From NCBI GenBank assembly GCA_008273105.1, contig GCA_008273105.1_4080.1: a DNA stretch of 64,000 nt. One strand, given 5' to 3'. Under the pieces are notes generated by a model that worked only from the letters and a program-made list of their open reading frames with translations, was not told where the DNA came from and did no database searches. This document shows, one piece after another, positions 1-17,922 of this stretch (position 1 is the first letter of the stretch; the number at the start of each line of letters is the position of its first letter). The DNA is from a phage. A program made the position numbers and the translations under genes.

Positions 1-251
1 ATTAATCTTCAAATCAGACCCAGGGCAATATGAAATGTATTCTGCTTTGTAATGAAAGTCATTATCATCAAAGTACTCCGCGTAGATTTGATTACCTCTA
101 CCATTAGTAAATGCTAGTCTTCCTTTAGATGAACTGAACTCATCGTATTGAAACATACCACCAAAAGGTTTAGGACTTCTGAACTCCTTTGCAATGCGAT
201 AGATATTTTCTGCAAATTCTAAAACACCATCGTAATCATATTCTATAGTAA
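1..251 (-). CDS. hypothetical protein, 3' end beyond window
   Basis: Minus-strand frame open from ATG at 251 to window edge (MITIEYDYDGVLEF...); abuts stop of next gene. Confidence 0.4.
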
Positions 252-728
252 TCATAAACCATTTTTCTCCAGGTACTCAATAATACAATCGACATTGTTC
301 AGGTCCAAGTAGAAATGATCACTATCGGAATTTAGTTCATTTTTAAGGGCTGTTAAAATCACTGAACTGAAAACAATCCTCTCTGGATACACAGTACTGT
401 ACTGGAAGAACTCTTCTTCAGTGTTAATTACAATCGTATCAAATGCTTCATTTATAAGAAGATGATTGTAGTATTTGAAATTATCTGAACTTGGGAAATG
501 GTATGAAATAAAATCACCACTTGGTACTTCATCAAGCACTCTAATACTACAAGTTGATTCATCTGAGCTATAGAGTAACCCATCCATAAAGGAAAGATAT
601 CCATTTCGTTTAATAACTTTATTTTTATCAATTAAAAAATCTTCAGTAACATTCGCAAGGAATTTATAAACCCTGATAATGTCTTTTGCTATTTTTTGTG
701 CATTGCTAAATGATAGGTCTTTGGACAT
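252..728 (-). CDS. family-A small protein (F-Q core motif)
   Basis: ORF 158 aa; core motif TEEEFFQYSTVY then FYLD, shared with array paralogs. Confidence 0.6.
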   Translation of the reverse strand: MSKDLSFSNAQKIAKDIIRVYKFLANVTEDFLIDKNKVIKRNGYLSFMDGLLYSSDESTCSIRVLDEVPSGDFISYHFPSSDNFKYYNHLLINEAFDTIVINTEEEFFQYSTVYPERIVFSSVILTALKNELNSDSDHFYLDLNNVDCIIEYLEKNGL

Positions 729-787
729 TGTGTTATAACCCTTTACAATTAATATAAAGGGATTATATCACAAAAAATCGGTGGGTG

Positions 788-1372
788 TCAAGAGTGGTTG
801 CGAAGTTCTACCATTTCTTCCCAAACTAATTGGTAATCTTCTAAGTCCAGATAGAAGTCTTCATTCCAGTGCACATGAAAGTACTTATACATGAATAGAA
901 CTCCTAAATCGTATGCAGGAAACAATAATGATAGTTGAAAGTAGTATTCCTGATTTAAAACTATATCAATAAACTCTAATGTACGTATGCCACCTTTCGA
1001 TGAACGTATCTCAATGTGTGAGGTATCCTTCATACTGTAACACATGAAACCACCTCTAAATTCTGGATCATATTCACATTCGAACTGCTCACTGTTGTTA
1101 TAGAAATCTCTCCCACTTTCTTGATCTTTCGGTCTACGTACTGATACATGAATATTTTTATCACGGTACATTGAACGATTTAGTATTTTCAAACATTTGA
1201 ACTTATCTTCTTTAATGAACTTGATAATATCAATTATATCTTGTGCTGTACTGATAGCTGATTCGAATGTATCCAACTTAAGATGATTATATTGGGTTCC
1301 AGAGTTCATTTTTTTATCTAACATATAAACCTCATAATTCATACATTTTTGATTTGAACTGCATATGACCAC
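788..1372 (-). CDS. family-A small protein (divergent)
   Basis: ORF 194 aa; motif QEYYFQLSLLF ... FYLDLEDY; true start may be internal (about 1324). Confidence 0.5.
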   Translation of the reverse strand: MVICSSNQKCMNYEVYMLDKKMNSGTQYNHLKLDTFESAISTAQDIIDIIKFIKEDKFKCLKILNRSMYRDKNIHVSVRRPKDQESGRDFYNNSEQFECEYDPEFRGGFMCYSMKDTSHIEIRSSKGGIRTLEFIDIVLNQEYYFQLSLLFPAYDLGVLFMYKYFHVHWNEDFYLDLEDYQLVWEEMVELRNHS

Positions 1373-1667
1373 CTATTTCACATGGATAACAATTCATAAT
1401 TTTGTTCAATAGAATCTGGTATTTTTTAATAACTTCTATATCAATTTTTATATTACTATTAAAAACTAATGATTCTTGAAATAATTCCCCCTCGTCAAGT
1501 GAAGTAAAATCATTTATCTTCAAGGGTATATTGTTGCATCGCAAGGAGAATGTATTTTCATCACGAATTAAAGTATAGAAATCATTATGTTTTTTATTAT
1601 AATCAAATTTAACAAGTAGTAGTTTAATATGAGTAGCGTACATTACTTTAACTAATTCAGTCTTCAT
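1332..1667 (-). CDS. family-A small protein
   Basis: ORF 111 aa; motif DEGELFQESLVFN. Confidence 0.55.
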   Translation of the reverse strand: MKTELVKVMYATHIKLLLVKFDYNKKHNDFYTLIRDENTFSLRCNNIPLKINDFTSLDEGELFQESLVFNSNIKIDIEVIKKYQILLNKIMNCYPCEIGGHMQFKSKMYEL

Positions 1668-2019
1668 AACGGAATAAAATTCTCCTGTACTGCTCCGGTC
1701 CAGTACTCAATCTCTTCACTGGATAATTATCAAAGATTCTTTTCATTTCTTTCTGGATTAAACATAAGAAATCAAAGTTACAATCGTACTTATTATCCCA
1801 TACTAAACTTTCTTGGAATAACTCATCCTCTTGCATTAGTGTAGTGTCAATTACATCTTCACGAACATAGCTATATACTTCATAGCTCTTGAAGCCATCT
1901 TCTGATAATTCTAATTCATATGCAGCCATATCAAACATATCATCATGGTTTGTCTTCAATGATATTAAACAAGTAACTAATTTTTTAGTTGTATAGTATG
2001 TAATACTTAATGTGTTCAT
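1657..2019 (-). CDS. family-A small protein
   Basis: ORF 120 aa; motif QEDELFQESLVWD. Confidence 0.55.
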   Translation of the reverse strand: MNTLSITYYTTKKLVTCLISLKTNHDDMFDMAAYELELSEDGFKSYEVYSYVREDVIDTTLMQEDELFQESLVWDNKYDCNFDFLCLIQKEMKRIFDNYPVKRLSTGPEQYRRILFRYED

Positions 2020-2024
2020 TTGTT

Positions 2025-2627
2025 TTATACCTCAGTATAAAGCTTACAATAGCTTTCATCAAAATCACAAACACTTCTCAAGTACTGACACAGGTCATTG
2101 AAAATATTTACATTTGATATATATACATTATCAAATTCTGTTCGTTGAAAGAATGTATGCATAGAATTTGTAATATATCGCATTGCATCTTCACGTCCCA
2201 TAGTTATATCATTTGTGAACATTGCATCTTCATCAGTACTGATGTGTTCTATTTTAAATGATTTCATAAATGGAATACTCTTTCCTAGGGCATAACCATC
2301 ACCATATGATGCTTCTACTGCACCTTTAGAATAAAGGAATTGATATAAGTCCGAATCACGATTATAAAAAGTACGACATACGGAGGAACATAATTTATTA
2401 TCTATATGAAATAAAAATCTTTTAGCATTTTTGTCTAATACTATTCGCAATGCATCACTCTCTAGAAATATATCACCATCAAGCATAAATGAGAACTGTA
2501 CTAATGCTTTTTCTAAATCCGCTCGTTTGTGATAAATCATTTCCTGCATATATATAATATCATTTGCTAATTTCTTAAAAAACAAATGCACATCTGCACT
2601 ACAACATTTATTTGCATTTATTGACAT
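2025..2627 (-). CDS. hypothetical protein
   Basis: ORF 200 aa, co-oriented and abutting neighbours; no clear family motif. Confidence 0.5.
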   Translation of the reverse strand: MSINANKCCSADVHLFFKKLANDIIYMQEMIYHKRADLEKALVQFSFMLDGDIFLESDALRIVLDKNAKRFLFHIDNKLCSSVCRTFYNRDSDLYQFLYSKGAVEASYGDGYALGKSIPFMKSFKIEHISTDEDAMFTNDITMGREDAMRYITNSMHTFFQRTEFDNVYISNVNIFNDLCQYLRSVCDFDESYCKLYTEV

Positions 2628-3178
2628 AATAGTTCCTTATACATATGATGTACTTTACAAATCTCATTATAGTATTTCATATCAATGTCATTTGTATTAA
2701 AAACGGAAACAGACAATACTGCTAACTTATCAATTAAGTAATTATTATCGGCGTACTCTTTTAACTTATTGAACATATAGATGCATTTTATACTTAATTC
2801 ATCATGCAACACACTGTTCTGAAAAATATTCTCTTCAGTATTAGGAGATAAGTAATCTTCAATTATATACGATAAACTACTATCGCAATCTTTATAGATT
2901 GAAATTGATGGATGTAATGTGTCATACATTACACTAAACAGATCACCGTCATATGTGGATATTAAACTATTATTGGAAACAGTAGGATGATAATATTTCA
3001 GTACTGAAAACTTTGAACAATCAGTGCAGTAAAAATGATCCATCCCTCGACGACTTTCGTATGAGAATAGTTTACTTGTATATTCAATCCCTTTGGTGCG
3101 ACGGATTGTTTCATGCATTTCTGCACATTGCATTAAAATTACCATACGTTCAAACGCAATATCTAAATCATCGTACAT
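2618..3178 (-). CDS. family-A small protein
   Basis: ORF 186 aa; motif TEENIFQNSVLHD. Confidence 0.55.
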   Translation of the reverse strand: MYDDLDIAFERMVILMQCAEMHETIRRTKGIEYTSKLFSYESRRGMDHFYCTDCSKFSVLKYYHPTVSNNSLISTYDGDLFSVMYDTLHPSISIYKDCDSSLSYIIEDYLSPNTEENIFQNSVLHDELSIKCIYMFNKLKEYADNNYLIDKLAVLSVSVFNTNDIDMKYYNEICKVHHMYKELLCQ

Positions 3179-3359
3179 AACGGATATCCTTCTTCAGCGA
3201 ATTAATATATTCCAAAATAACTTGTTCCTGATATTGGGTTCCCAAGTACATCAGGACTTTCAACTCTTTGAATTCAGTACTATATGAGTCTGTTTGCATC
3301 ATTCTAGTAGAATATATATTGAATAGTTTAGCAATGTCATTTTGGTCTATTATTTTCAT
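3168..3359 (-). CDS. family-B small protein (LGTxxQ core)
   Basis: ORF 63 aa; motif YLGTQYQEQVI; outlying member of the 16-24 kb array family. Confidence 0.5.
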   Translation of the reverse strand: MKIIDQNDIAKLFNIYSTRMMQTDSYSTEFKELKVLMYLGTQYQEQVILEYINSLKKDIRYVR

Positions 3360-3558
3360 ATATTCTCTTCTGGATTAGTTCCTGTAAGTGCTGAATATAA
3401 CCCTTCATTGCAACATCCTGTTTGTTAGAGCCAACGAAGAACAAGAGCTTAAAGTCATGGTAATCCATTTTTGGTTTAGTAGTGAACCATATGTCCCACA
3501 CTGCACTCACAGTTCTCATGTATTCAATTCGATTAAATGTTTTTGAATACTTCATCAA
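3337..3558 (-). CDS. family-B-like small protein
   Basis: ORF 73 aa; degenerate motif FVGSNKQDVAM. Confidence 0.45.
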   Translation of the reverse strand: MMKYSKTFNRIEYMRTVSAVWDIWFTTKPKMDYHDFKLLFFVGSNKQDVAMKGYIQHLQELIQKRIYENNRPK

Positions 3559-4069
3559 TGTTAATCGCCAATAAGTTAATATACAAATTACTGTTAAATG
3601 CTATCTGCAATTCCATATAGAACTGAATGATAGCATAGTCAGGGTCAGTACACGATAGTTGAAAACACTGTTCGTCAAATGCATTGTAATTGTACTTAGG
3701 GATGTGAATTTCACGCTTCAAATCAGGTTGACCCCACTTCATCGCATACACACCAATGTTATTGTTCTTTTTCCTTTTCTTAAATGTTAATTGTTGAATA
3801 TTTCCAGCGTTGTCTAGGAAAATAGTATTATTCGACACAGGTGCACCAATAGAAAACAATGATGTATCAATTACGTGTGTCTCACGCACCTCACACTTCT
3901 GGAATGCCCCAGTACCCTGTAATACATAATGAAAATTGTACTTCTCATTAACAACAGTACTAGGATCGATTAAACCAGTACTGCATTTTTTGAGTACTGG
4001 TACAATGGTGCGAATCTTTTTTGATAAATCTTGTAATGCATCAAAGTCATTGATGTTAACTTTCATCAC
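3533..4069 (-). CDS. hypothetical protein (weak family-A signal)
   Basis: ORF 178 aa; GTGAFQKCEV weak match to F-Q core. Confidence 0.5.
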   Translation of the reverse strand: MMKVNINDFDALQDLSKKIRTIVPVLKKCSTGLIDPSTVVNEKYNFHYVLQGTGAFQKCEVRETHVIDTSLFSIGAPVSNNTIFLDNAGNIQQLTFKKRKKNNNIGVYAMKWGQPDLKREIHIPKYNYNAFDEQCFQLSCTDPDYAIIQFYMELQIAFNSNLYINLLAINIDEVFKNI

Positions 4070-4515
4070 TCGAATGTAGCCTCTTCAGTAGTAACAAAAT
4101 TGGTTAGTGTATCCAGTTCAGCAGTGTCAAGATAAAATACATCTAGTACAGATTTCTGATATATTACACTGAATGTGCATAGATTGTCAAGTGTCCCTTG
4201 TTCATAAACAGTACTACCCTGGAAGTACCCTTCTTCAGTACTCAGGGATAAAATATCTGAAATTTTAAAAGATTCTTCAGTTGCATGTCTTTCTATATTA
4301 ACTATATTGCCGTTTCGGTTCAATGAAATATAATCGTATGCTAACTCAATTAGACTATAATTATCCGCATTAGTGTCAAATAAAGCGACAATTTTTCGTC
4401 TCAATCTCTCATCGTGATCATGGTTTTCATCAGCTAAGTATTCAGGATTTTCTTTGAAGAATTTAACGACGCGTAGAATATCATTTGCTTTCTTGATTGC
4501 ACTTTCGTAACTCAT
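4066..4515 (-). CDS. family-A small protein
   Basis: ORF 149 aa; motif STEEGYFQGSTVY ... FYLD; ATGA overlap with neighbour. Confidence 0.55.
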   Translation of the reverse strand: MSYESAIKKANDILRVVKFFKENPEYLADENHDHDERLRRKIVALFDTNADNYSLIELAYDYISLNRNGNIVNIERHATEESFKISDILSLSTEEGYFQGSTVYEQGTLDNLCTFSVIYQKSVLDVFYLDTAELDTLTNFVTTEEATFE

Positions 4516-4820
4516 AATAATTCAACCACTCCATCTCTAAAGTACATATAACTACCACCATTGGATACTGTGAATTCTATTGTCCCCAATAATATATTAT
4601 ATTTTTTTATTTCACATGTAGTACTTGTAGTGTAAGGCTCACCATCTCCTAAGTACATTGACATATGACATAGAACTTTTCTACCAGCATATTTCTCTTC
4701 AAACGATTGTTCAAAACTATGCATAATTTGATTTAAAGCTGAAATGTAATTAATAAAGTCAGGTATTTCTGTCAATGAATTATAAACCGTACAAAGTGAA
4801 TCAAATTCATTTTTAGTCAT
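4512..4820 (-). CDS. hypothetical protein
   Basis: ORF 102 aa in operon context; no family motif. Confidence 0.45.
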   Translation of the reverse strand: MTKNEFDSLCTVYNSLTEIPDFINYISALNQIMHSFEQSFEEKYAGRKVLCHMSMYLGDGEPYTTSTTCEIKKYNILLGTIEFTVSNGGSYMYFRDGVVELL

Positions 4821-5134
4821 TATATTTCTATCTCAATGTAATCCTGTGTGATTAAATAATCCCAATGATACTTCACCTGCTTTTGTAATTCAATTAACGT
4901 AAAGAAGTTGATCGATTTATCCCATACGAGAGATTCCTGGAAAATAAATGATTCATGTTCATCGTAATAATCACACTCTAAAAAATCAGGTATATATTCA
5001 CTATCGTGAATGTATTCAACAAACGAACTAGCTTGGCATTTCTTTACTACTAGTAATAATGAATTATCATGATCAAACAGATACAATAAACTAATTTCAC
5101 CAGGGACGTACTGAACACTGAATAAGTTTTTCAT
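4820..5134 (-). CDS. family-A small protein
   Basis: ORF 104 aa; motif ESFIFQESLVWD. Confidence 0.55.
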   Translation of the reverse strand: MKNLFSVQYVPGEISLLYLFDHDNSLLLVVKKCQASSFVEYIHDSEYIPDFLECDYYDEHESFIFQESLVWDKSINFFTLIELQKQVKYHWDYLITQDYIEIEI

Positions 5135-5583
5135 TCTATACCTTCTGGATCTTTACGAAGTTCTTCGAAATCCAAATAAAATCGAGGACAGTTAACACTC
5201 TTTAAGTACCACATAATAACTAATGCTTCAAGTACTTCATCATCGTAAACAGTACTGTTTTGGAAGTAATACTCTTCACTATCCCACGGACCTTCCAGTA
5301 CTTCATAATTCAAAATTAATGGTTTTTTGCGATTAATAAAACGAATGCTACCATTTTCAACATAACTAATAAATTCTGCATCTCTATTGTATTCAGAAAA
5401 CGATATAGGACTATTGGAATTCAACCCAAGAATAACCCTTACACCAACGGAGTTATTATACATTTCATCCTTGTAGTAGTTGCCGTTCTCGGCTTTGTAC
5501 ACTTCTTTGAACTTTCCTGCCTTTATATCGTCAAAGTATCCATGTAGTTCTTTTGCTTTTTCAAGAGCACTTTGTAATGACAT
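5131..5583 (-). CDS. family-A1 protein (MSLQSAL... GPWDSEEYYFQ subfamily)
   Basis: ORF 150 aa; N-term MSLQSALEKAK, core GPWDSEEYYFQNSTVY, MWYLKS, FYLDF. Confidence 0.65.
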   Translation of the reverse strand: MSLQSALEKAKELHGYFDDIKAGKFKEVYKAENGNYYKDEMYNNSVGVRVILGLNSNSPISFSEYNRDAEFISYVENGSIRFINRKKPLILNYEVLEGPWDSEEYYFQNSTVYDDEVLEALVIMWYLKSVNCPRFYLDFEELRKDPEGIE

Positions 5584-6049
5584 TACCTTCTCCTACAGTA
5601 TTCTCTACATATTCATAATCAAAATAGAAACTACTGGAGTCAATACTTTTGAAATACCACATAATTACAATAACATCTAATTCTTCTTCATTGTACAACG
5701 TACTATTCTGGAAGTAATATTCTTCACTATCCCACGGTCCTTCCAGTACTGAATAAGGAATGATAGTGTCATCAGCATCACTATCTGTGTTGTAGATGGT
5801 AATATCTTCATTACGGCAATAACTAATGTACTGATTGTACATATGATATTCACAGTTATCACTGTCACCAGTATCAGTGTGCAGTACTAATGTTTCTGCA
5901 CATATCTCGGACTCGTCATAATCGTCACGGTCTTTTACAAAAAATTCAGTATCAGATGTTTTATATACACCTGGTACTGAACCTTCCTGTACCATAATCA
6001 TGTACTCATGAATCTTCTTTGCTTCTTTCAATGCACTTTGTAATGACAT
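5561..6049 (-). CDS. family-A1 protein
   Basis: ORF 162 aa; MSLQSALKEAK ... GPWDSEEYYFQNSTLY ... MWYFKS. Confidence 0.65.
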   Translation of the reverse strand: MSLQSALKEAKKIHEYMIMVQEGSVPGVYKTSDTEFFVKDRDDYDESEICAETLVLHTDTGDSDNCEYHMYNQYISYCRNEDITIYNTDSDADDTIIPYSVLEGPWDSEEYYFQNSTLYNEEELDVIVIMWYFKSIDSSSFYFDYEYVENTVGEGNVITKCS

Positions 6050-6492
6050 TACAAATCCCCTGTACTTAAATATTCACATGCTCCCCAGTCAAGAAAGAAT
6101 GGTTCAAAATTCAATTCCTTAAAGTACCACAACACAACCAAGGAATCAAGAATTTCTTGGTTAAAAATGAGACTCTGTTGGAAGTAATACTCTTCAGAAC
6201 CCCACGGGCCATCAAGTACCCCGAAGTCAACAGGTGTATTTGTTGTGTCAAAAGTAATCTTAGTACCTGGAATATATACAAAAAAATTAGTATATTGACT
6301 ACATGAAGAGTACTGTATAGTATTGTCTTTATCCTGTCCCATAAGTAAAATATCATCAGAGTATGTCTTTATACCTGATAGATAATACTCATTACCAAAT
6401 GCACTTACTTTATCACCATAGAAACCACTTTTTATGTTATCGTGGAAGTGATGTATTCTGTGTGCTAGTTCAAGTGCACTTGCTAAACTCAT
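6049..6492 (-). CDS. family-A1 protein
   Basis: ORF 147 aa; MSLASALELAH ... GPWGSEEYYFQQSLIF ... LWYFKE. Confidence 0.65.
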   Translation of the reverse strand: MSLASALELAHRIHHFHDNIKSGFYGDKVSAFGNEYYLSGIKTYSDDILLMGQDKDNTIQYSSCSQYTNFFVYIPGTKITFDTTNTPVDFGVLDGPWGSEEYYFQQSLIFNQEILDSLVVLWYFKELNFEPFFLDWGACEYLSTGDL

Positions 6493-6959
6493 ATATCCTC
6501 TTTAATAACTCGTAGTAGATCCAAGTCCAAATAGAAGCTAGGACAATCTGTATTATTAAAGTACCACAGAATGACAAGCTTGTCAAGTACATCTTCCTCG
6601 TAGATAGTATTCTGCTGGAAGTAGTACTCTTCACTTCCCCAGTCATTATCCAGTACTGAATACGGAAGATGTTTCTCTGCTGCACCAGATATAATGTCAG
6701 AATCTTGTATTAAAATATCAGCATCACGACAGAAGTACATGTAATTATCTTCCAAATTAACATCACACCCATTGAGTGTTGTTTCAGAAGAATCTAAGTT
6801 TTCTTCATACATGTGAATGTACTCACTACTGTCATCGTATCTCATTCGACAATATGATTTACCTTCCTTGAATAGATATCCATTAAGACAATTTGCTACA
6901 ATTTCTTTGCTGCATAAATCAATTAACTTCGCAATCTCTAATGCTCTTTCTAAACTCAT
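6489..6959 (-). CDS. family-A1 protein
   Basis: ORF 156 aa; MSLERALEIAK ... DWGSEEYYFQQNTIY ... LWYFNN. Confidence 0.65.
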   Translation of the reverse strand: MSLERALEIAKLIDLCSKEIVANCLNGYLFKEGKSYCRMRYDDSSEYIHMYEENLDSSETTLNGCDVNLEDNYMYFCRDADILIQDSDIISGAAEKHLPYSVLDNDWGSEEYYFQQNTIYEEDVLDKLVILWYFNNTDCPSFYLDLDLLRVIKEDI

Positions 6960-6960
6960 T

Positions 6961-7452
6961 TCAACCCCTGTTAATACCGTTATCTACAGTTTTCTTTACG
7001 TATTTGTAATCGAAATAGAAGTTCCCAGAACCAATACTTTTAAAGTACCACATAATTATAATAACATCAAGTACTTCATTATCATATACAGTACTTTGTT
7101 GGAAGTAATACTCTTCACTATCCCACGGACCTTCCAGTACTTCACTCGGAATTATAATGTCATTGGAATCGCTGTCAGTACTGTTGATGGTATCTGTATC
7201 ATTAATATAGACCATGTACTCATTATGCATATTAATGAAGCATTCATAATCATTAGGGTCGGTATCTAGTATGCACGTTTCTGTATCCAGTACGCACGTT
7301 TCTGTATCTGAGCAGTCATTATAAAGGAGGTTATCCGGTACATAATATTGAGTACTTGTGTCTTTGAAAACACCGTAAACTGAACCTTCTTTTGCCATAT
7401 TCATGTACTCATGAATCTTCTTTGCTTTTTCCAATGAACTCTGTAATGTCAT
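6961..7452 (-). CDS. family-A1 protein
   Basis: ORF 163 aa; MTLQSSLEKAK ... GPWDSEEYYFQQSTVY ... MWYFKS. Confidence 0.65.
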   Translation of the reverse strand: MTLQSSLEKAKKIHEYMNMAKEGSVYGVFKDTSTQYYVPDNLLYNDCSDTETCVLDTETCILDTDPNDYECFINMHNEYMVYINDTDTINSTDSDSNDIIIPSEVLEGPWDSEEYYFQQSTVYDNEVLDVIIIMWYFKSIGSGNFYFDYKYVKKTVDNGINRG

Positions 7453-7461
7453 TTTATAATC

Positions 7462-8545: not shown

Positions 8546-8703
8546 AAAATCTCCTTCAGATTAGTACTGAATTTGTACAGAATATTAGAACTGTATACAG
8601 CCTCTGTATCTGTATCCATAATCAAATCACCTTTGTTTAAATTACAAAAGTACTGATAACTGTGCTTAAAAGAATGTACTGATATTAAAAAATCAAATTC
8701 CAT
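8542..8703 (-). CDS. chimeric ORF / gene fragment from partial duplication
   Basis: 53-codon frame; first 27 aa duplicate N-terminus of 7818..8174 then diverge; ATGA overlaps at both ends. Confidence 0.3.
   Translation of the reverse strand: MEFDFLISVHSFKHSYQYFCNLNKGDLIMDTDTEAVYSSNILYKFSTNLKEIL
8625..8703. repeat. 79-bp direct repeat, copy 2
   Basis: Near-identical to 8096-8174. Confidence 0.8.
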
Positions 8704-9080
8704 CACTCTTCCCCTAGATTGAAATGATTACAAAAATCATCTTCACCAGTACTGCACCAGATGTCTATACATTCTCTGTGAATACATTTAATTCTACGCT
8801 GTAATTCAATCATCTCTTCTAATGTACAGATGTACTTCTTATCAAATACTAATGCCGCCTGAAACAGTGCAGCATCATCAAGTACTGTATAGTCCAACAT
8901 CTCGGTTGCTTTACCCCTAAACCCAGTACTAAAATCCATCAAATAAAAGTCAGCATTCCAGTACTTTAAAATCTTGTCCCTAGCGTAGTTTAAATCACCC
9001 TTGTATAAGTTAGAGTGCGTAACTAACTCACCAGTGTACATCCATGTCCTTGCACAAAATTCATTATATTTTATTTCCAT
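8703..9080 (-). CDS. family-A small protein
   Basis: Motif DDAALFQAALVFD; start set at MEIKYNEF (9080) because upstream 47 aa of the six-frame ORF look like translated non-coding sequence. Confidence 0.5.
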   Translation of the reverse strand: MEIKYNEFCARTWMYTGELVTHSNLYKGDLNYARDKILKYWNADFYLMDFSTGFRGKATEMLDYTVLDDAALFQAALVFDKKYICTLEEMIELQRRIKCIHRECIDIWCSTGEDDFCNHFNLGEE

Positions 9081-9276
9081 CTTAATCTCTACTATAATTA
9101 ATAAGGTAAACTCCAATATAAGGAGAACGTTCGGCGGCGGGGTATTTTTTGTTTCAAGAAACATGAACTGTACTCTGAAAAACACAATATAAAACTTTAT
9201 ATTAAACATATACCTTAGCATGTTTTTCAGCGGAAATTTTTTTGACCCCCCTGCGGCCTGTCAAAATGAAACGTCT

Positions 9277-9873: not shown

Positions 9874-10425
9874 TCATACATTAACAACTTTATCGATGTA
9901 ATCTTCTAACATATCAATATATCTGGTATTGGTTCTAACTAAAAGGTATGCAAATCCAGAGAACTCCTGTGTATAATGCTTTACAGCGTACATACAACGA
10001 AGCTTATCATTGTCATACATTGTACTGTACTGAAACAAACTCTCGTCTGATAGCTCTAATAACGCTTGGGCTTCACTTCTCGTGAACTTCATAGGGTCAT
10101 GTACTGCATCACAAAAACAAACCTGTGTCTCGCTATTGAAACCCTGTGATAGATATATACCTTCACACTCTGAACGCACCGATACTGCATTATAACTATG
10201 TGTTGCCCCCATCATATCTGAACTCAAAACTAAAATCAACCCATTTTTATTTTTAATCAACAAATCTGACTTAAGGGATTTGATCTCCGTATGGGAAATA
10301 TCACCAAATCTTCCTGGGACTTCAAACTTATCAACGTTGTATACAATCTTTTGTACTTGCTCTTTTAAACGCTTAATTGCACTTCTGTCTTTTTCTAATG
10401 TATCTAATAAACTCATTGAACTCAT
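9874..10425 (-). CDS. family-A small protein
   Basis: Motif SDESLFQYSTMYD; start set at MSSMSLL preceded by AAGGAAAG. Confidence 0.5.
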   Translation of the reverse strand: MSSMSLLDTLEKDRSAIKRLKEQVQKIVYNVDKFEVPGRFGDISHTEIKSLKSDLLIKNKNGLILVLSSDMMGATHSYNAVSVRSECEGIYLSQGFNSETQVCFCDAVHDPMKFTRSEAQALLELSDESLFQYSTMYDNDKLRCMYAVKHYTQEFSGFAYLLVRTNTRYIDMLEDYIDKVVNV

Positions 10426-10435
10426 TGTACTTTCC

Positions 10436-10780
10436 TTACATATTTGTACCGAACAAAACGGAACTTTGAATGCCATTAATCGACACTTCATGTACATATA
10501 TATTTTGTCTGAACAAAGGAACTAATTGAACTAAACTCGTTTGCATAATAATATGCATATGTACATTGTCATATGCCGTTTCGTATTGGAATCGTGCAGC
10601 TTCATCTTCTATGAAATTCGGAACTTGGACTGGATTCTCAAAATTTGTCCTTGTACTGAACTGTACATCATTGTCCTGTACCTTAATACCATATGAATTA
10701 TCATTGTTATCAACTACATCAAATTCAATTAAACTACCATCTTTACTGACGTTTACTATATAAACCGAAAATCGACTCAT
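10436..10780 (-). CDS. family-A small protein (divergent)
   Basis: ORF 114 aa; motif EDEAARFQYETAYD. Confidence 0.5.
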   Translation of the reverse strand: MSRFSVYIVNVSKDGSLIEFDVVDNNDNSYGIKVQDNDVQFSTRTNFENPVQVPNFIEDEAARFQYETAYDNVHMHIIMQTSLVQLVPLFRQNIYVHEVSINGIQSSVLFGTNM

Positions 10781-11295
10781 AAACCTATTTCCTCTAAATC
10801 TTTGACAAATGTATCATAATCCGATAATGACAAAAATATGTCTGTACTGATGTTTTGACGTAATGTATTAAACAAATTATGTACCTGTAATAAATCAGGT
10901 GCATAAATCAGGGATTGCTGGAAATACGATTCTTCTGTATCTAATATATCCCTGCACTCAATTTCACGAACTCGTTGGTATATTGAATTTAATAATACAT
11001 TTTCATCTTTGAGCATTGGAAGGTATCTGATGTACATGTGCTCCATCAACTCATCCTGGATTGAACCCCTGAACTGCAACACGTATTCAAAACACATCAC
11101 TACATCTTGTAGGTAATTGGCACTGTAATTATTGCTGTAAACAATCTTATGACTTCTGAACTCATCATCATCATTTCTGAACCAATTGTCACCCACTTTG
11201 GTGTACTTATGACTAAGCTTCCCATCCTCCAACGCTCGAATGAACTTCATAATGTTAATTGCAAAATCATATGAATGATGCTTGTGTTGATGCAT
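10777..11295 (-). CDS. family-A small protein
   Basis: ORF 172 aa; motif DTEESYFQQSLIY. Confidence 0.55.
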   Translation of the reverse strand: MHQHKHHSYDFAINIMKFIRALEDGKLSHKYTKVGDNWFRNDDDEFRSHKIVYSNNYSANYLQDVVMCFEYVLQFRGSIQDELMEHMYIRYLPMLKDENVLLNSIYQRVREIECRDILDTEESYFQQSLIYAPDLLQVHNLFNTLRQNISTDIFLSLSDYDTFVKDLEEIGL

Positions 11296-11303
11296 TTTTT
11301 ACC

Positions 11304-11498: not shown

Positions 11499-11499
11499 A

Positions 11500-12123
11500 C
11501 TATATATCCAACCCTTTTACAACATCTACGAAATGTTCAAACACTTCTTTTGAAAAATAACCACCTTCACAAAAAAGCATACTAAACGGTGGCAGCATGT
11601 CCGATAACTCTTTAGCTAAATTGATTTCTGCTCTTAACTCTTGAACATCAATGATATCATGTACTAAAGATAATTGAAACATGAATGCATCTACATCTTC
11701 ATTCATTTCTGAATTGTAATATAACTCTTCAGGGAATTTGTCGGTTTCGTAATAATAAAAAACTTTATTGTTGAACACACCACTAATAGGAACATCATTT
11801 TCATCTTTCTTTGAAATGTTTGTTTCCCATGACTCTATATTATTAGGAACAAAAAAATCATAGGCTGATTTTGAACCCTGTACTGAATCCAACTTTATTC
11901 CATAATATTCCGTATCCATGTATTTCTGCTGTAATGTAATACCACGTGTACTGACATTCACTTGGAATATATCATCTTTATCTGGAACACTAAATGGAAT
12001 ACATAACACTGAATTCTCAGGGTATTTGGCAATGAATGCATCCAGCACTTTATTAAGCACCGGAATGGCAATTTTACTGTACTGCATCAAATCATACATT
12101 TTAATTCTGGTCATATCATTCAC
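11500..12123 (-). CDS. family-A protein
   Basis: ORF 207 aa; motif EDVDAFMFQLSLVHD. Confidence 0.55.
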   Translation of the reverse strand: MNDMTRIKMYDLMQYSKIAIPVLNKVLDAFIAKYPENSVLCIPFSVPDKDDIFQVNVSTRGITLQQKYMDTEYYGIKLDSVQGSKSAYDFFVPNNIESWETNISKKDENDVPISGVFNNKVFYYYETDKFPEELYYNSEMNEDVDAFMFQLSLVHDIIDVQELRAEINLAKELSDMLPPFSMLFCEGGYFSKEVFEHFVDVVKGLDI

Positions 12124-12655
12124 CTGTGTATGTTTTCACCCTTAGCGATTCAAAATCCCATACATCACTGATTGTACCATTGTGCCTGTAATCATAATAT
12201 TCTACTAATACATTATACAATAACTTCAACGATACAAATTCATGATTCCACGGAGCTTTATTCTCATGAACACATTTGGTGATATAAGGTATAATATATA
12301 AACTAAACAACACTAATGGTGAATGTATACATTGCATTTGAAAATATTCTTCTTCTTGCATACAATGCTCAGGAATAATCAATTCCGTATGTGACCCTAA
12401 GCTATACGAACCTGCTGTGTATTTTTTCGTATCACATGCGTACCATATTGTACTATCCGAAATAAATGGAATGATACCATTATTGTTTGCAATGTACATC
12501 ATATGGTAAGAGCGATTTGTCTTGTTAAATATCTCGATACTTTCGATATTACTACAAATCATGTATTCAAGGCAATCAATGATCTTATCTTTAAATGTAC
12601 CAATTTCATTGAATGACATTGCTTTCTGTACTTTTGATACTGTTGTACTGCTCAT
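12116..12655 (-). CDS. family-A protein (divergent)
   Basis: ORF 179 aa; motif QEEEYFQMQCIH. Confidence 0.5.
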   Translation of the reverse strand: MSSTTVSKVQKAMSFNEIGTFKDKIIDCLEYMICSNIESIEIFNKTNRSYHMMYIANNNGIIPFISDSTIWYACDTKKYTAGSYSLGSHTELIIPEHCMQEEEYFQMQCIHSPLVLFSLYIIPYITKCVHENKAPWNHEFVSLKLLYNVLVEYYDYRHNGTISDVWDFESLRVKTYTGE

Positions 12656-13326
12656 ATGTTATCCTTAAAAAAATCCAAATACTCTTCATTGAAAGCATAT
12701 GTATCATCTTTTTTGTTATGCACCACATAATCATAAAGAGCTATGAATGCAGGGATTATGATCTTACATGATTTATTATTGTATTTGTGGTACTCCAAAT
12801 CAACGGTGTTCAATTTAGCAATAAGCATAGCAACAAAGATATCTTCATGGCGATGTACTGTACTGTACTGAAAATACTCATCCTCTCCAATATCTGGATG
12901 ATATAACGGTATAACCAAATTATTACGAATTGACATCTTATATTTTTGTAATGCAGCTAAATGTATGAACCACAATCTATCTTCATTGAAATATGGAAAA
13001 ATAATTTTGTCTGTGCTAATAAAAATTTCTTCATTTCGATTATTTGTCACAAGAGGTGCATACATTTTAATTTTTGCAGATCTAATAATTAAATTAAAAA
13101 TATAATGAATCTTATGAACTGCACTTGATGCATCTTCGTATGTACTTGGGATTATGAAACTCACTATATGTTCTCCTTTAAAATGATTACACATGATAAC
13201 AGCTTTGCACTTCTTTGTCAATACCAAAACGAAAAAAGCCCATATCTTACGATACAGGCGTGCTGGGCATGTTGATTTGAATTTCATTGTACAAATCATC
13301 AATATATAGACATGAAAAAAACACAC
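12652..13326 (-). CDS. family-A protein
   Basis: ORF 224 aa; motif GEDEYFQYSTVH; start probably internal (overlap with upstream gene). Confidence 0.5.
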   Translation of the reverse strand: MCFFHVYILMICTMKFKSTCPARLYRKIWAFFVLVLTKKCKAVIMCNHFKGEHIVSFIIPSTYEDASSAVHKIHYIFNLIIRSAKIKMYAPLVTNNRNEEIFISTDKIIFPYFNEDRLWFIHLAALQKYKMSIRNNLVIPLYHPDIGEDEYFQYSTVHRHEDIFVAMLIAKLNTVDLEYHKYNNKSCKIIIPAFIALYDYVVHNKKDDTYAFNEEYLDFFKDNI

Positions 13327-13753
13327 TATCTTGTACTATATTGTTGTGATAAAGCATTTTAAATACTACATAAAAAAATAAATCAATATCATCGTGGACT
13401 AAATTCTGCTGGAACCACCACTCGTCTGTTAAATCTTGTGCATTAAAATCATCAGGAACTTCAATGAACGACATATCACAATCTTCTTTGTACTCAAACC
13501 ACATGTCGTCATTCGGATAACGTTCATGCTTCTCTGGGTAACAATTGCTGGGATTAAATGTTAAAATATTAAACCCCGTAGAGCAACGTTCTTTATTTAA
13601 AAATGTATTATTCCATACCTGATATTTTTCACCAACATCAAGCTCTTCTGTTACTGATTTTATTGCACATAATGTACTGTATATTGTTTCTATCTTGTGA
13701 ACATATTTAAATGCAGCATCTAAGCTGAACTCTAAATCATACATGTACTGCAT
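13247..13753 (-). CDS. family-A protein
   Basis: ORF 168 aa; motif TDEWWFQQNLVHD. Confidence 0.55.
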   Translation of the reverse strand: MQYMYDLEFSLDAAFKYVHKIETIYSTLCAIKSVTEELDVGEKYQVWNNTFLNKERCSTGFNILTFNPSNCYPEKHERYPNDDMWFEYKEDCDMSFIEVPDDFNAQDLTDEWWFQQNLVHDDIDLFFYVVFKMLYHNNIVQDSVFFSCLYIDDLYNEIQINMPSTPVS

Positions 13754-14073
13754 AAAATTACCTCAACTAAAGCAAGGACTGTATTGAATTCCACTATACT
13801 TGTAATTCCTTGAAGGTACATGTACTTTGCTACTACATATTTCTGTACTAAATTATAATTTTTAAATTCCTCAAAATTGTAATTTAGAACAAAATCTGTA
13901 CTCAAAAATAACTTATGCATCTCTAATGCACTTTGATAATACGCGTACAACTCACTGATATCAATACTGGTTAAATTATATTGTTCATATCTATGATACG
14001 GGATGGCTTCAATTTCAATACTATAAAACCATTCTCTTAACTTATTAATATCAAATGTATTATTCAGCTTCAT
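13732..14073 (-). CDS. hypothetical protein
   Basis: ORF 113 aa. Confidence 0.45.
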   Translation of the reverse strand: MKLNNTFDINKLREWFYSIEIEAIPYHRYEQYNLTSIDISELYAYYQSALEMHKLFLSTDFVLNYNFEEFKNYNLVQKYVVAKYMYLQGITSIVEFNTVLALVEVILCSTCMI

Positions 14074-14626
14074 AACTCAATACCTCCATTAAACACTCAT
14101 ACACACCATCAATCGCATAAGCACAAAAATTGAAATTAATTTTGTGATTCTTGTGTAATGGACTATTGTGTACTGTACTCATTATGACATTATAAAATAA
14201 CAAACGCACTGGTACAAGCATTGAACCTTGGAAAAATTCTTCCTCTGATTTATATGTATTGTACTCTATTGTTTTGTTCGTTTCTTTATCATATGTTACC
14301 ATTACTAATGGGGCATTTTTATTATACCATGCGTACTCTAAATCATTCTTTCCAATAACAGCACCAGGTGCGAAATCCAAAAGACCAATAACACTACGGG
14401 AATTTGGGGTATCAGGTGTATTGAATCGTTTATCAAAATGACTCGTGCACGCAATATATGTATTGTACTTCGATGGAATAATACCAATACATTTGTGGAA
14501 ATGACGCTTGTGATATTTCTGGGCATTATATAAGGCTGCAACAATACAAGCTAACTTTTGTCCCATAAGGATTGCATTAGCGTAGGTGTACTGAATTTCA
14601 TTGCTGGTACGGTACTTCGAGGTCAT
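14060..14626 (-). CDS. family-A protein
   Basis: ORF 188 aa; motif SEEEFFQGSMLV. Confidence 0.55.
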   Translation of the reverse strand: MTSKYRTSNEIQYTYANAILMGQKLACIVAALYNAQKYHKRHFHKCIGIIPSKYNTYIACTSHFDKRFNTPDTPNSRSVIGLLDFAPGAVIGKNDLEYAWYNKNAPLVMVTYDKETNKTIEYNTYKSEEEFFQGSMLVPVRLLFYNVIMSTVHNSPLHKNHKINFNFCAYAIDGVYECLMEVLSYEAE

Positions 14627-14909
14627 AATATTTCCTTTGCCATATCATGGGCTTAAAATCAATAACAGCTTTCTGTATCTTTTTTAATAATAAGACATCA
14701 TAACCACCCGTGTCAATCACTAATTGCTGTTGGAACAATTCTTCATCGGATAATGTATTGAAATCTACAAAATAATCTGTAACTATCGAATCATTTAAAT
14801 GTGCCATGTACCAACCTGAACTTCTTGAATAAATCAAATTCCACCCATCGTCATCATCTTCTAATTCAACATAAATCATATCTGGGGTATACATCATTTT
14901 ATACTTCAT
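14598..14909 (-). CDS. family-A small protein
   Basis: ORF 103 aa; motif SDEELFQQQLVID. Confidence 0.55.
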   Translation of the reverse strand: MKYKMMYTPDMIYVELEDDDDGWNLIYSRSSGWYMAHLNDSIVTDYFVDFNTLSDEELFQQQLVIDTGGYDVLLLKKIQKAVIDFKPMIWQRKYYDLEVPYQQ

Positions 14910-15447
14910 AACTATATCCTTGCATTAATAAATCATAAACTACATGGACTAAATTTAATTGAATATAAAATTTTAAACCTTTAATTAATGGATTCAAATG
15001 CATTGTACTGAATAACATTAGATACATCATCTCATGCGGTTTTGTGATTAATGATTGTTGGAATACGCCAGCTTCATCATAAGGGTCTATGAACTGAAAT
15101 TTGTCTTCATCATAATTTGTATTGGAATGCTGATATATAAAATAATCATCATTGGTATTGTACCACAAATACCCTTCGAATCCTGTACTAACACCTTTGG
15201 TCAATGGGGATGCTGATACTGGATTTGAACTGATTAATGCACCTACATCAACAATCCCCGTTGTATCATATTCGATTTCAACATCAATATCAATGTATTT
15301 CCTTGCGATATCTGCGTTTATGGACAAATATAAACTACCACCTGTCCTCTGACTCAGGATTCCATCTATATGCGATATAGGATGGTTGTTATTGAGGATA
15401 AGCATTATTGTACTTATCTTGTGTGCTAATAACTCTATCTCATTCAT
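14899..15447 (-). CDS. family-A protein
   Basis: ORF 182 aa; motif DEAGVFQQSLIT. Confidence 0.5.
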   Translation of the reverse strand: MNEIELLAHKISTIMLILNNNHPISHIDGILSQRTGGSLYLSINADIARKYIDIDVEIEYDTTGIVDVGALISSNPVSASPLTKGVSTGFEGYLWYNTNDDYFIYQHSNTNYDEDKFQFIDPYDEAGVFQQSLITKPHEMMYLMLFSTMHLNPLIKGLKFYIQLNLVHVVYDLLMQGYSYEV

Positions 15448-15810: not shown

Positions 15811-16185
15811 AATAGGATACTCCTTTCCTTGTACTATGTACGACAAAATCCATCCGTAATGAATAGGATGATTTTTGTCTGAATCAGGAATAAAATATAA
15901 AGCTGTACTTGGATTGTGACTGAATAAATCTTTATTGTCAAATGTAAAATGATCTAATTTTATTATACGCGTTGATAAAGAACGTAATACATTTTTAACA
16001 CTGAACTCTGTTCCTTTGTATTTTTCCGATAATTCAAATAATGCATCTGTAATTAAATCACTGAACTCTTGAATTACAAAATTCTGATAAAATGCATTAA
16101 TCTCTTTAAACTCTGTATACATTTCACTTCTTGTATTCAAAAGGAATATTACTTGTTTAAGATCCTGTACTATTGTTGGGTTCAT
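15796..16185 (-). CDS. hypothetical protein
   Basis: ORF 129 aa. Confidence 0.5.
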   Translation of the reverse strand: MNPTIVQDLKQVIFLLNTRSEMYTEFKEINAFYQNFVIQEFSDLITDALFELSEKYKGTEFSVKNVLRSLSTRIIKLDHFTFDNKDLFSHNPSTALYFIPDSDKNHPIHYGWILSYIVQGKEYPIKWKD

Positions 16186-16423
16186 ATTTGTTTATCTCAT
16201 TATGTACCTTAAGCATCAAAATTTGCATATGAATTTTTTGTTCAAGGTGCTTGATAAATTTCTGTGCCATTTCTTCTTGTTCCGATGTACCAAGATAAAA
16301 TAACAGATTAAATTCTGATAATCGCAAAGAAAAATCTTCATCACCACCCTTTAAACAAAAATCCCTGTACTTCGATGCGTACAAATATTGGTTTACTTTT
16401 TTATAATACCCTGTGTTTTGCAT
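16157..16423 (-). CDS. family-B small protein
   Basis: ORF 88 aa; motif YLGTSEQEEMA. Confidence 0.55.
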   Translation of the reverse strand: MQNTGYYKKVNQYLYASKYRDFCLKGGDEDFSLRLSEFNLLFYLGTSEQEEMAQKFIKHLEQKIHMQILMLKVHNEINKYEPNNSTGS

Positions 16424-16608
16424 ACGATCTCCGTTCGCAATGAACTTATATAATAATGAATGTATTGTTCCTGTGAACGTGTTCCAAGAAAAATAAACAT
16501 ATCAAACTCTGTTCTTTTTAAATTCAATTCATCTTTTGTTAAACTAGTACTGAATTCCCTGTACTTTTGGGTCTTCCATTCTTGATTAATTGTCTTGTAC
16601 ATTGACAT
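16393..16608 (-). CDS. family-B small protein
   Basis: ORF 71 aa; motif FLGTRSQEQYI. Confidence 0.55.
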   Translation of the reverse strand: MSMYKTINQEWKTQKYREFSTSLTKDELNLKRTEFDMFIFLGTRSQEQYIHYYISSLRTEIVCKTQGIIKK

Positions 16609-16912
16609 ATATGGTTCTTCCTTGTGTGCCTTGTATTAGCCTATCAAACACATCGAGCATCACTTTTTGAATATTAATTAGTACTGGCATCGTGCAAATA
16701 TCAATGTCGTATACTAAGCTGTACTGGAATAATTCATCTTCCTGCATTTGTACTAAATTAGGTAAAGGATAATTGTCTGCCTCTTCATCCTGGTACTTGA
16801 AATGCATAACACCATCCTTTTTGTACAAAAGAATGTCAATATCACCTAACTCTTCTGCATAACCAAAAATACATATACTCGATGTTTTTGCTATATTAAA
16901 TTTCATCTCCAC
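16586..16912 (-). CDS. family-A small protein
   Basis: ORF 108 aa; motif QEDELFQYSLVYD. Confidence 0.55.
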   Translation of the reverse strand: MEMKFNIAKTSSICIFGYAEELGDIDILLYKKDGVMHFKYQDEEADNYPLPNLVQMQEDELFQYSLVYDIDICTMPVLINIQKVMLDVFDRLIQGTQGRTIYVNVQDN

Positions 16913-17148
16913 CTCTCTCCGTCAGCACAAGAGTACTGGTACGTTGTCGTTAGGGTAGGGACCATGTTTGTAATGGGCATGTTGTTAACAATAACCGTAA
17001 CAGGCATAAGAATCGTCTCTTCTCTACTCTGTCCTGTCCTTGTGCAATTCATCTTCTGCATTTCATCTGAATCCATGAAATACAATACAAATGGTGCAAT
17101 CCCAAGAACAATACACAAAACGATAAGGAAATTTAAAAAATTTAACAT
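16903..17148 (-). CDS. hypothetical small membrane protein
   Basis: ORF 81 aa with hydrophobic N-terminus (LNFLNFLIVLCIVLGIAPFVLYF); sigma70-like promoter directly upstream. Confidence 0.45.
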   Translation of the reverse strand: MLNFLNFLIVLCIVLGIAPFVLYFMDSDEMQKMNCTRTGQSREETILMPVTVIVNNMPITNMVPTLTTTYQYSCADGERWR

Positions 17149-17177
17149 AATTTTTACCCTATGATTAACGTTAGTGT

Positions 17178-17206
17178 ACTATATCAGTAATGAAAAGTAC
17201 TGTCAA
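17178..17206 (-). promoter_or_regulatory. sigma70-type promoter (TTGACA-N17-TATAGT)
   Basis: Minus-strand TTGACA gtacttttcattactga TATAGT upstream of 16903..17148. Confidence 0.45.
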
Positions 17207-17207
17207 G

Positions 17208-17612
17208 CTAGTATTGCACTGTTCTAATGAAAGTACCTGAACTCATGGATTTAAGCTTATGAACCTCTTCCTGCATACCCTTGATTAACCCTAAAGGTAT
17301 AGGTACATCATGTACTAAGCTGTACTGAAAGTATTCTTCTTCAGATAAAGTACTAACATCTGGAACGCCAATTTTAGTTATATAATCTTGATGTGTTGAC
17401 CAATAAATTATATCTTCAGTAGAATTGTACTCCCCATATACTGAACAGTATTGATGAATATCTTTCCTGTACCCTTGAGCAATAAAGAACTTATCTACTG
17501 CATTACCAGCATTAATAGAATTCACTTCGATTGTCACAGTACTTGAGCTTGTATAACTCTTAGTATTATCAGTACTTTTAATACTCAACTGTGTGTTCTT
17601 CATAATCACCAT
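17208..17612 (-). CDS. family-A small protein
   Basis: ORF 134 aa; motif SEEEYFQYSLVHD. Confidence 0.55.
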   Translation of the reverse strand: MVIMKNTQLSIKSTDNTKSYTSSSTVTIEVNSINAGNAVDKFFIAQGYRKDIHQYCSVYGEYNSTEDIIYWSTHQDYITKIGVPDVSTLSEEEYFQYSLVHDVPIPLGLIKGMQEEVHKLKSMSSGTFIRTVQY

Positions 17613-17922
17613 TAGGCTCCTGTTTAGATTCTTTCATTAGTACTATCATCTTATGTACTAATGGCATAGGAAACTCTAAATCCCATACTAATGATTCCTG
17701 AAAGTATTCCTCTGGTGATAAAGTACTTAAATCTTTAATATCAACGTGCTTGTATATTTTATTTTCGTAATTAACAAATGATATATATAAATCACTAACA
17801 TAAGAATCATAGGTAATTGTGAATGGCTTACCCTTGTAATCCATTACATCTCTACATAGACTACTTTTGATATATGTATGTTCAAATGATTTATATACCT
17901 TGAGTTGTATATTAGTTTTCAT
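17578..17922 (-). CDS. family-A small protein
   Basis: ORF 114 aa; motif SPEEYFQESLVWD. Confidence 0.55.
   Translation of the reverse strand: MKTNIQLKVYKSFEHTYIKSSLCRDVMDYKGKPFTITYDSYVSDLYISFVNYENKIYKHVDIKDLSTLSPEEYFQESLVWDLEFPMPLVHKMIVLMKESKQEPNGDYEEHTVEY

Follow-up and report, generated by a model that had tools for sequence, protein, structure and literature searches.

The window analysed here is a 64,000-nt stretch of phage DNA (contig GCA_008273105.1_4080.1 of assembly GCA_008273105.1), whose first 17.9 kb carry a tandem array of small minus-strand genes, referred to below as Family A. Their products are united by a block centred on the residues F-Q: 31 minus-strand open reading frames (ORFs) between 252 and 17,922 contain an acidic run, an aromatic residue or Leu, F-Q, any residue x, S and [L/T][V/I]Ω(D), where Ω is aromatic. 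An earlier note on this DNA had described about 30 tandem paralogs with a conserved F-Q block, which agrees well with the counts. A permissive regular expression for the block matches 30 of the 31 members, whereas 500 residue shuffles gave an expectation of 0.23 and at most 3. In a six-frame scan of the window it matches only in the three minus frames within 1-17.9 kb, except for two plus-strand sites at about 19.7 and 22.7 kb, which are chance matches. A family hidden Markov model (HMM), built from the 31 window members and 96 database representatives, recovers from the window ORFs exactly these 31 and a truncated ORF at 1-276, and no other in 64 kb.

According to the MAFFT alignment of the members, F and Q are the sole invariant columns, and the mean column identity is 12%. 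Both residues are conserved in 127 of 127 sequences (31 window members and 96 representative clusters). Relative to F, these 127 sequences favour S/T at −5, E at −4 (E or D in 115), E at −3 and an aromatic residue or L at −1, followed on the C-terminal side by S at +3 (103 of 127), L/T at +4, V/I/L at +5, an aromatic residue at +6 and D at +7. As for the downstream motifs given by the earlier note, FYLD is family-wide, although as a degenerate strand [FI]-Y-[FLI]-[DN], whereas MWY(F/L)K is confined to five close paralogs at 5131-7452. The members are small proteins of about 100-207 aa in two size classes, long and short; the upper limit of 225 aa proposed earlier drops to about 207 aa once over-extended starts are trimmed. 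The statement that almost every minus-strand ORF belongs to the family was too broad: the array interval has 48 ORFs, of which about 16 are non-members. Four of these carry the motif of a second family, and the remainder either fall into unrelated PHROGs of unknown function or match no PHROG; comparison with PHROG and Pfam gave no functional clue for any of the non-family ORFs inside the array.

The block was said not to be a recognisable domain, and a known domain is indeed ruled out by the profile searches. No Pfam match below E 0.04 was obtained for 10 members, including none to the Ocr or ArdA families. NCBIfam and PADLOC gave only single-member matches at chance level for the 31 members, and profiles from the PDB gave no match, so that within the scope of the PDB the model has no recognisable relative of solved structure. 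In PHROGs, Family A is split into many unrelated-looking clusters, all of "unknown function": PHROGs 9317, 12674, 13866, 15629, 19795, 28680, 30243, 30978, 31297, and 32681 consist of its members and are joined by weak cross-hits. The literature searched on 121Q, PBECO4, CBB, phAPEC6, Sharanji, fEgEco12, and BASEL contains no description of the motif, fold or array, the CBB paper reporting 22 BLAST-level paralogs only; nor is the family described in the Iyer/Aravind jumbo phage review or the jumbo phage pangenome paper. Family A is thus previously undescribed as one superfamily, its members being known singly as scattered hypothetical proteins. Large paralog expansions in big viruses are already a known phenomenon; what is new is a single superfamily with a sharp signature, a confident model, a fixed genomic address and a gradient of about 8-50 copies.

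Genome position, gene packing and neighbouring features

Over positions 4000-9000, the window shares 99.7% identity with Escherichia phage BF17 and 94-99% with G17, SHEFM2K, phAPEC6, and 121Q; judged by its sequence, the source is an Asteriusvirus-type jumbo coliphage. Position 1 of the vB_Ec-M-J record corresponds in alignment to window 44,384. This record has an annotated direct terminal repeat (DTR) of 21,525 bp, whose inner boundary falls near window 24,370. GC skew and coding strand both switch near 44 kb (~44.4 kb), which probably marks the physical genome end. Read on the minus strand from this end, the order is the DTR homologue (44.4-24.4 kb), a block of genes of about 70-90 aa (24.3-17.9 kb) and Family A (17.9 kb to position 1), all transcribed away from the genome end. 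The array therefore comes after a terminal repeat of about 20 kb, directly inside the left genome end. For fEgEco12, DTRs of about 21 kb have been verified experimentally (PMC13070987).

Genes of the array are tightly packed, with a coding density of 97%. Among 47 junctions, 33 overlap by 1-31 nt, mostly 1, 4 or 11 nt, and 7 have gaps of 0-10 nt, which supports the earlier observation that the genes abut or overlap. Shine-Dalgarno (SD)-like motifs precede most genes, and ATGA/TAATG coupling is present. The few intergenic gaps contain the strongest σ70-like sites of the array, strong consensus sites being found in 4 of the 7 gaps longer than 10 nt (Table 1). On the gene strand of the DTR homologue, σ70-like sites are significantly enriched (104 vs 74±9 in shuffles), including 8 perfect consensus promoters and many 11/12 matches.

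Table 1. Family A members and putative regulatory sites along the window
Feature	Position	Strand	Basis or remark
Truncated member (C-terminal part; F-Q block past window edge)	1..276	-	HMM E 2.5e-5; full BF17 gene (locus 20382-20876) has MTEEMYFQESCIHD
Long-class member NTEEEFFQYSTVY	252..728	-	HMM E 8e-26; phrog_12674
σ70-type promoter-like site TTGACA-18-TATAAT, 12/12, TG extension	762..791	-	Consensus match; 59-nt gap upstream of gene 252-728
Long-class member NQEYYFQLSLLF	788..1372	-	HMM; true start probably 1342 or 1324
Short-class member DEGELFQESLVF	1332..1667	-	HMM
Short-class member QEDELFQESLVWD	1657..2019	-	AlphaFold pLDDT 81.8; PHROG match
Divergent long-class member SMHTFFQRTEFD	2025..2627	-	Weakest HMM match, E 5.7e-5
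Long-class member TEENIFQNSVLHD	2618..3178	-	HMM
Long-class member FDEQCFQLSCTD	3533..4069	-	HMM
Long-class member TEEGYFQGSTVY	4066..4515	-	HMM
Short-class member HESFIFQESLVWD	4820..5134	-	HMM
Five tandem close paralogs	5131-5583, 5561-6049, 6049-6492, 6489-6959, 6961-7452	-	All SEEYYFQ(N/Q)(S/N)(T/L)
Three short-class members	7462-7821, 7818-8174, 8174-8545	-	HMM
Short-class member DDAALFQAALVFD	8703..9221	-	True start near 9080
σ70-type promoter-like site, 10/12	9264-9236	-	Consensus match; intergenic gap
Long-class member SDESLFQYSTMYD	9874..10497	-	True start probably M28 at 10416
Short-class member DEAARFQYETAYD	10436-10780	-	HMM, PHROG
Long-class member TEESYFQQSLIY	10777-11295	-	HMM, PHROG
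Long-class member DAFMFQLSLVHD	11500-12123	-	HMM, PHROG
Long-class member QEEEYFQMQCIH	12116-12655	-	HMM, PHROG
Long-class member GEDEYFQYSTVH	12652-13326	-	True start probably 13164
σ70-type promoter-like site, 11/12, TG	13221-13193	-	Consensus match; 82-nt gap
Terminator-like hairpin	13259-13238	-	Consensus match; 82-nt gap, precedes promoter-like site 13221-13193
Long-class member TDEWWFQQNLVHD	13247..13753	-	HMM
Long-class member SEEEFFQGSMLV	14060-14626	-	HMM, PHROG
Short-class member SDEELFQQQLVID	14598-14909	-	HMM, PHROG
Long-class member DEAGVFQQSLIT	14899-15447	-	HMM, PHROG
Short-class member QEDELFQYSLVYD	16586..16912	-	HMM
σ70-type promoter-like site, 11/12, TG	17178..17206	-	Consensus match; 59-nt gap
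Short-class member SEEEYFQYSLVHD	17208-17612	-	Absent from 121Q
Short-class member SPEEYFQESLVWD	17578-17922	-	Upstream end of array

The region between the genome end and the array has features of its own. The DTR homologue (24371-44384) consists of single small genes with wide spacing. Its minus strand bears three copies of a 38-nt element, AAAGGGATTGACTCCGGTCAGTCCCTTTGCTATTATAT, at 25813-25850, 27778-27815, and 30718-30755, with at most one mismatch (0 expected), and a more diverged copy at 34399-34426. A −35-like TTGACT lies within the stem of the 12-bp hairpin formed by the element and is followed by a −10-like TATTAT. The element may act as terminator and promoter in one, or as an early promoter subject to regulation. 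An identical pair of terminator-like hairpins with a T-run, AGCCCACCTTAAACAGTGGGCT, lies in the same terminal-repeat region at 37911-37932 and 37176-37197 (minus strand, 735 nt apart). The space from the repeat boundary to Family A is filled by a second expansion (17912-24301, and also 3171-3600 and 16157-16635), which comprises about 29 minus-strand ORFs of 68-114 aa sharing h-L-G-T-N-Y-Q-E..Y-h..h-I..L (phrog_4148, function unknown), four copies of which lie inside the Family A array.

Family A genes are protein-coding and under purifying selection

Regular spacing is the one feature in favour of an artefact, be it a motif dictated by a DNA repeat or ORFs that do not represent genes. The codons contradict this. 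At the invariant Phe, TTC is used 18 times and TTT 13 times, at the invariant Gln CAG 16 and CAA 15 times, and the conserved Ser draws on AGY as well as TCN codons. Over the 13-codon block, identity amounts to 57% at codon positions 1 and 2 vs 35% at position 3. This mixture of synonymous codons, together with the lower conservation of third positions, shows that protein-level selection keeps the motif. At the DNA level, repeats connect no members but the five recent paralogs at 5131-7452, besides one 85-nt partial duplication, so a DNA repeat as the source of the motif, which the earlier note had named as one finding that would overturn its claim, is ruled out. Together with the SD-like motifs, the translational coupling, the dN/dS values below and the confident fold predictions, these results leave an artefact a negligible probability.

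Compared with 121Q, 30 of the 31 genes have syntenic orthologs (there is none for 17208-17612) with a pooled dN/dS of 0.28, and the same value of 0.28 is obtained for Family A against the more distant vB_Ec-M-J. The Family A genes are thus real, protein-coding and under purifying selection. The term "hypervariable", used earlier and suggestive of rapid diversification, does not fit these values, which hold at two levels of divergence, nor the partial collinearity of the array between genera (see below); purifying selection and cross-genus collinearity rather indicate paralogs that are old and individually conserved. In dS, however, the array differs from its surroundings: against vB_Ec-M-J it reaches 0.58, vs 0.20 for the DTR genes and 0.26-0.27 for other neighbours, at equal dN/dS. 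The array shares 72-87% nucleotide identity with this phage, and most of the terminal repeat 89-98%. Higher dS at equal dN/dS means that Family A alleles are about three times older than their surroundings and no less constrained, a pattern expected from exchange or maintenance of divergent alleles and not from decay.

The five paralogs at 5131..7452 form DNA repeat family D1 (64-78% identity to the reference copy), and their proteins are 32-39% identical to the first copy (5131-5583). The 85-nt direct repeat (8092-8176 vs 8621-8705, 96% identity) arose by recent partial duplication of gene 7818-8174 at its 5′ end. The copy gives rise to a 54-aa ORF (8542-8706), which opens with it and is located just downstream of 8703..9221. 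This repeat is direct evidence that duplication and recombination are ongoing within the array.

Distribution among phages and predicted fold

Window position 1 is not the end of the array, which in BF17 extends about 11 kb further, with members including MTEEMYFQESCIHD, LSEEELFQESTIS, and LSEESYFQNSLIY, as well as a few degenerate copies (MFNANLLYD, LALQYQVLYN, ALMQLSTSEP, and FFTQSTMVK). HMM counts per 40-50-kb locus are 45 for BF17, 31 for Klebsiella RaK2 and 20 for Salmonella Munch, while Erwinia Eneladusvirus pEa_SNUABM_47 has 7-9 copies with an F-Q-x-[S/L/M]-T variant. Across genera the tandem array thus ranges from about 8 to about 50 genes, with about 50 in Asteriusvirus, or about 8% of the genome. 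JNE01 carries strain-specific Family A paralogs.

A consensus tblastn probe matched 54 phage records, all of them Rak2-like phages of about 350 kb or fragments thereof, from Escherichia, Klebsiella, Salmonella, and Erwinia. An exhaustive profile search of 1.84 billion representatives returned 96 clusters, every one with the block, and the named database members are hypothetical proteins of Rak2-like phages or of ~350-kb "E. coli" assemblies. None of the hits has a Pfam domain or a domain fused to it, and a second iteration with a 116-sequence profile revealed no new remote homologs. These database results are best explained by a single-domain family restricted to Rak2-like enterobacterial jumbo phages. 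As for its history, an independent expansion in each genus is only partly true: similarity across genera is as low as within a genome (bit scores 20-60), about half of the best matches cross genera, and reciprocal best hits between RaK2 and BF17 are collinear in the distal half of the array. This collinearity implies that much of the expansion took place before these genera separated; local duplications, the five SEEYYFQ genes among them, followed later.

In BF17, RaK2, Munch, and pEa_SNUABM_47 alike, the array lies between the spaced small genes by the terminal repeat and a Dam...RnlA/PseT block. The latter (locus coordinates 35839-46555 in BF17, 40980-50000 in RaK2, 41720-50000 in Munch, and 31114-38993 in pEa_SNUABM_47) comprises a Dam-type methylase, a nucleotidyl/cytidylyltransferase (annotated in RaK2, Munch, and pEa_SNUABM_47), RnlA RNA ligase and PseT polynucleotide kinase, the kinase not being within the portion of Munch compared. 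Two or three further F-Q family members stand directly upstream of the RNA ligase in BF17 and Munch. The distal array of BF17 also includes a 137-aa non-family gene (MKLYHASTVKIDNFYIPYGGLHMGG..., locus 28775-29188), which belongs to phrog_11632 of unknown function and has no Pfam match.

Family A proteins are soluble and mostly acidic (median isoelectric point 4.67, mean net charge −9.5, aromatics 14%). AlphaFold2, run with family alignments, gives for the long class (5131-5583) a model with a predicted local distance difference test (pLDDT) score of 89 and a predicted template modelling (pTM) score of 0.84. It consists of an N-terminal helix, seven β-strands and short helices at 93-97 and 103-109, the second of which is EEYYFQN, followed by a long helix (115-129), a strand (135-138, FYLD) and one more helix at the end. 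In the model of the short class (1657-2019; pLDDT 82, pTM 0.77), five strands come before the F-Q helix, and a long helix and a terminal strand after it. A common fold of β-sheet, short F-Q helix, long helix and final β-strand is thus predicted with confidence. Profile-profile alignment of the two classes with hhalign (probability 92.7%, E 4e-7) extends across 26 columns only, so homology over the full length is not supported; PHROG cross-hits reach about 80 residues. Beyond the 26 columns, a shared topology is suggested by two AlphaFold secondary-structure strings. Known folds with a β-sheet platform that may be compared include the RNA polymerase β lobe, LolA, viral decoys resembling class I major histocompatibility proteins (OMCP, m152, and UL18), and Mam33/p32 (gC1qBP), the last having an antiparallel sheet of seven strands with one flanking helix on the N-terminal and two on the C-terminal side.

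The block is the best-predicted part of both models (per-block pLDDT 96-98), which is consistent with the earlier proposal of a fold-stabilising core. It would act as the structural keystone of the scaffold and leave the rest of each protein free to vary. In the long model S102 directly precedes helix 103-109 and D114 directly precedes helix 115-129. Based on these positions, Ser/Thr at −5 would cap the N-terminus of the short helix with Glu-Glu in its first turn, Phe would pack into the core, Gln and Ser would connect the helix with the short strand after it, and the next helix would be capped by Asp. Invariance of F-Q is partly a matter of ascertainment, because the searches reward F-Q, and about 4-5 array genes of BF17 have MFN, LQ, MQ or FTQ instead.

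Possible functions and significance

We tentatively favour, at slightly less than an even chance, the reading of Family A as a diversified early repertoire for host interaction, serving takeover or anti-defence. Early in infection, host RNA polymerase would start at σ70-type promoters and transcribe the array in operons with translational coupling; the products would act in the cytoplasm on host components, each paralog binding or blocking a different host protein. A different target for each paralog would explain why dozens of divergent copies are kept and why alleles differ between strains. Early expression by the host enzyme is suggested by the position after the terminal repeat, the orientation away from the physical end, the σ70-like sites in the gaps, and the equivalent region of CBB, which was inferred to be early (PMC5259590). 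A role in immunity or anti-defence is likewise suggested by position, promoters, neighbours and allele diversity: the array lies at the left end, its proteins are acidic and small, strain-specific paralogs and deep allelic divergence are present, and candidate counter-defence genes (the Dam methylase and the RnlA/PseT tRNA-repair genes) are located just downstream. The authors of the phAPEC6 study linked RnlA/PseT to countering Prr.

Family A resembles the pre-early block of T5, the early block of T4, the takeover module of SPO1 and Ocr-type inhibitors in its location by the entering genome end, its σ70-type promoter-like sites and its small, mostly acidic, cytoplasmic, non-virion proteins. 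The T5, T4, and SPO1 blocks, however, encode unrelated proteins, whereas Family A is one family amplified 50-fold.

Several results weigh against a host-interaction repertoire. Conserved synteny and a dN/dS of 0.28 are not indicative of a fast arms race. Transcript data for these phages did not turn up in the literature search, and profiles from Pfam, NCBIfam, PADLOC, and the PDB gave no homology-based link to any function. The total of σ70-like sites in 1-20 kb is no higher than in shuffles of this AT-rich DNA, the sites being consensus matches only. The profile-profile homology of the long and short classes is limited to the 26 columns, and the residue roles proposed for the block are read from secondary-structure strings, not coordinates. 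Finally, the absolute invariance of Phe and especially of Gln exceeds the usual structural demand and points towards a shared partner or activity.

This last point leads to the main rival, in which the F-Q helix docks to one common hub (host RNA polymerase, a protease/chaperone or a phage enzyme) and the variable part selects cargos, as in F-box, BTB and poxvirus ANK/PRANC adaptors. The extreme invariance of Gln favours such adaptors, but the F-Q block would sit in a buried, capping-type context, which argues against them, and we regard this explanation as rather unlikely. A bolder form of it, which we hold to be unlikely, treats the array as a binder library on a private scaffold: the variable sheets of about 50 paralogs would recognise different host defence or housekeeping proteins, and the invariant acidic F-Q helix would hand these targets to one common machine (a protease, RNA polymerase or a phage enzyme).

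The age, synteny and purifying selection of the array, as well as its presence in every Rak2-like genus examined, would also suit phage-internal housekeeping, i.e. regulators or accessory factors of assembly or replication for the large genome itself. However, copy number varies six-fold among genera of similar genome size, and strain-specific gain and loss with deep allelic divergence is atypical of core functions, which makes this role distinctly unlikely. Polyimmunity loci are typically tandem arrays of small divergent single-domain proteins. The array resembles them and its content differs between strains, so the paralogs might neutralise toxins or effectors of bacteria or competing phages (polyimmunity or superinfection exclusion). 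We consider this improbable, as the members match neither SUKH/SMI1 or other Pfam immunity families nor any PADLOC model, no cognate toxin genes lie nearby, and database searches do not find the family in cellular genomes.

The virion proteome of phAPEC6 comprises 62 proteins, none of them in gp348-gp548 (PMC7247149). The array corresponds to about gp405c-gp466c of that phage, and hence none of its products is among the virion proteins in this one proteome, which rules out a virion or injected internal protein. The same result bears on a reading of E-x-x-Y/L-F-Q as a processing signal for a protease of the 3C type. The sites of tobacco etch virus (TEV) and human rhinovirus (HRV) 3C proteases are ENLYFQ|G/S and LEVLFQ|GP, and some members look alike (EEGYFQGS at 4066-4515, or DELFQES). 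This likeness in sequence is the only argument in favour; the residue after Q is rarely small (Y 27, E 21, Q 21, L 19, N 13, and A 7 of 127), the block is predicted to be helical (per-block pLDDT as above), and phage proteases act in virions, from which these proteins are absent. Variability at P1′ and the helical context argue against a cleavage site, the processing reading is highly improbable, and the likeness is almost certainly coincidental.

Similar expansions are found elsewhere among large viruses. Terminal multigene families serve host range and immune evasion in African swine fever virus (ASFV; MGF110/360/505) and in poxviruses (ANK and Bcl-2-like families). Family A shares with them tens of divergent tandem paralogs by a genome end and a lineage-dependent copy number, but virus realm, host and folds differ, and there is no sequence or structural relationship. 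The role of MGF360 is described in PMC12474291. The jumbo phage G of Bacillus shows a comparable lineage-specific expansion of a small domain, the zinc ribbon, to about 35 copies (Iyer et al. 2021, PMC7824862); unlike the known Zn-ribbon fold, Family A has no metal-binding pattern or known fold and is common to several phage genera.

In these 350-kb phages more than 80% of genes are without known function, and Family A accounts for about one twelfth of Asteriusvirus genes. At least about 10 separate "unknown" PHROG clusters are now unified by a signature, a predicted fold and a genomic address into one tractable question. The copy gradient of 8, 20, 31, and 50 across genera is a natural experiment on how internal duplication, as opposed to gene capture, makes jumbo genomes grow. 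Should the binder library prove true, it would be the bacterial-virus counterpart of F-box, BTB and PRANC adaptors and the largest known phage anti-host repertoire. If Family A proteins are host-takeover or anti-defence factors, they would provide a panel of about 50 natural inhibitors for the biology of E. coli, Klebsiella, and Salmonella and for phage-therapy design, and phages, like giant eukaryotic viruses, would be seen to build terminal multigene families.

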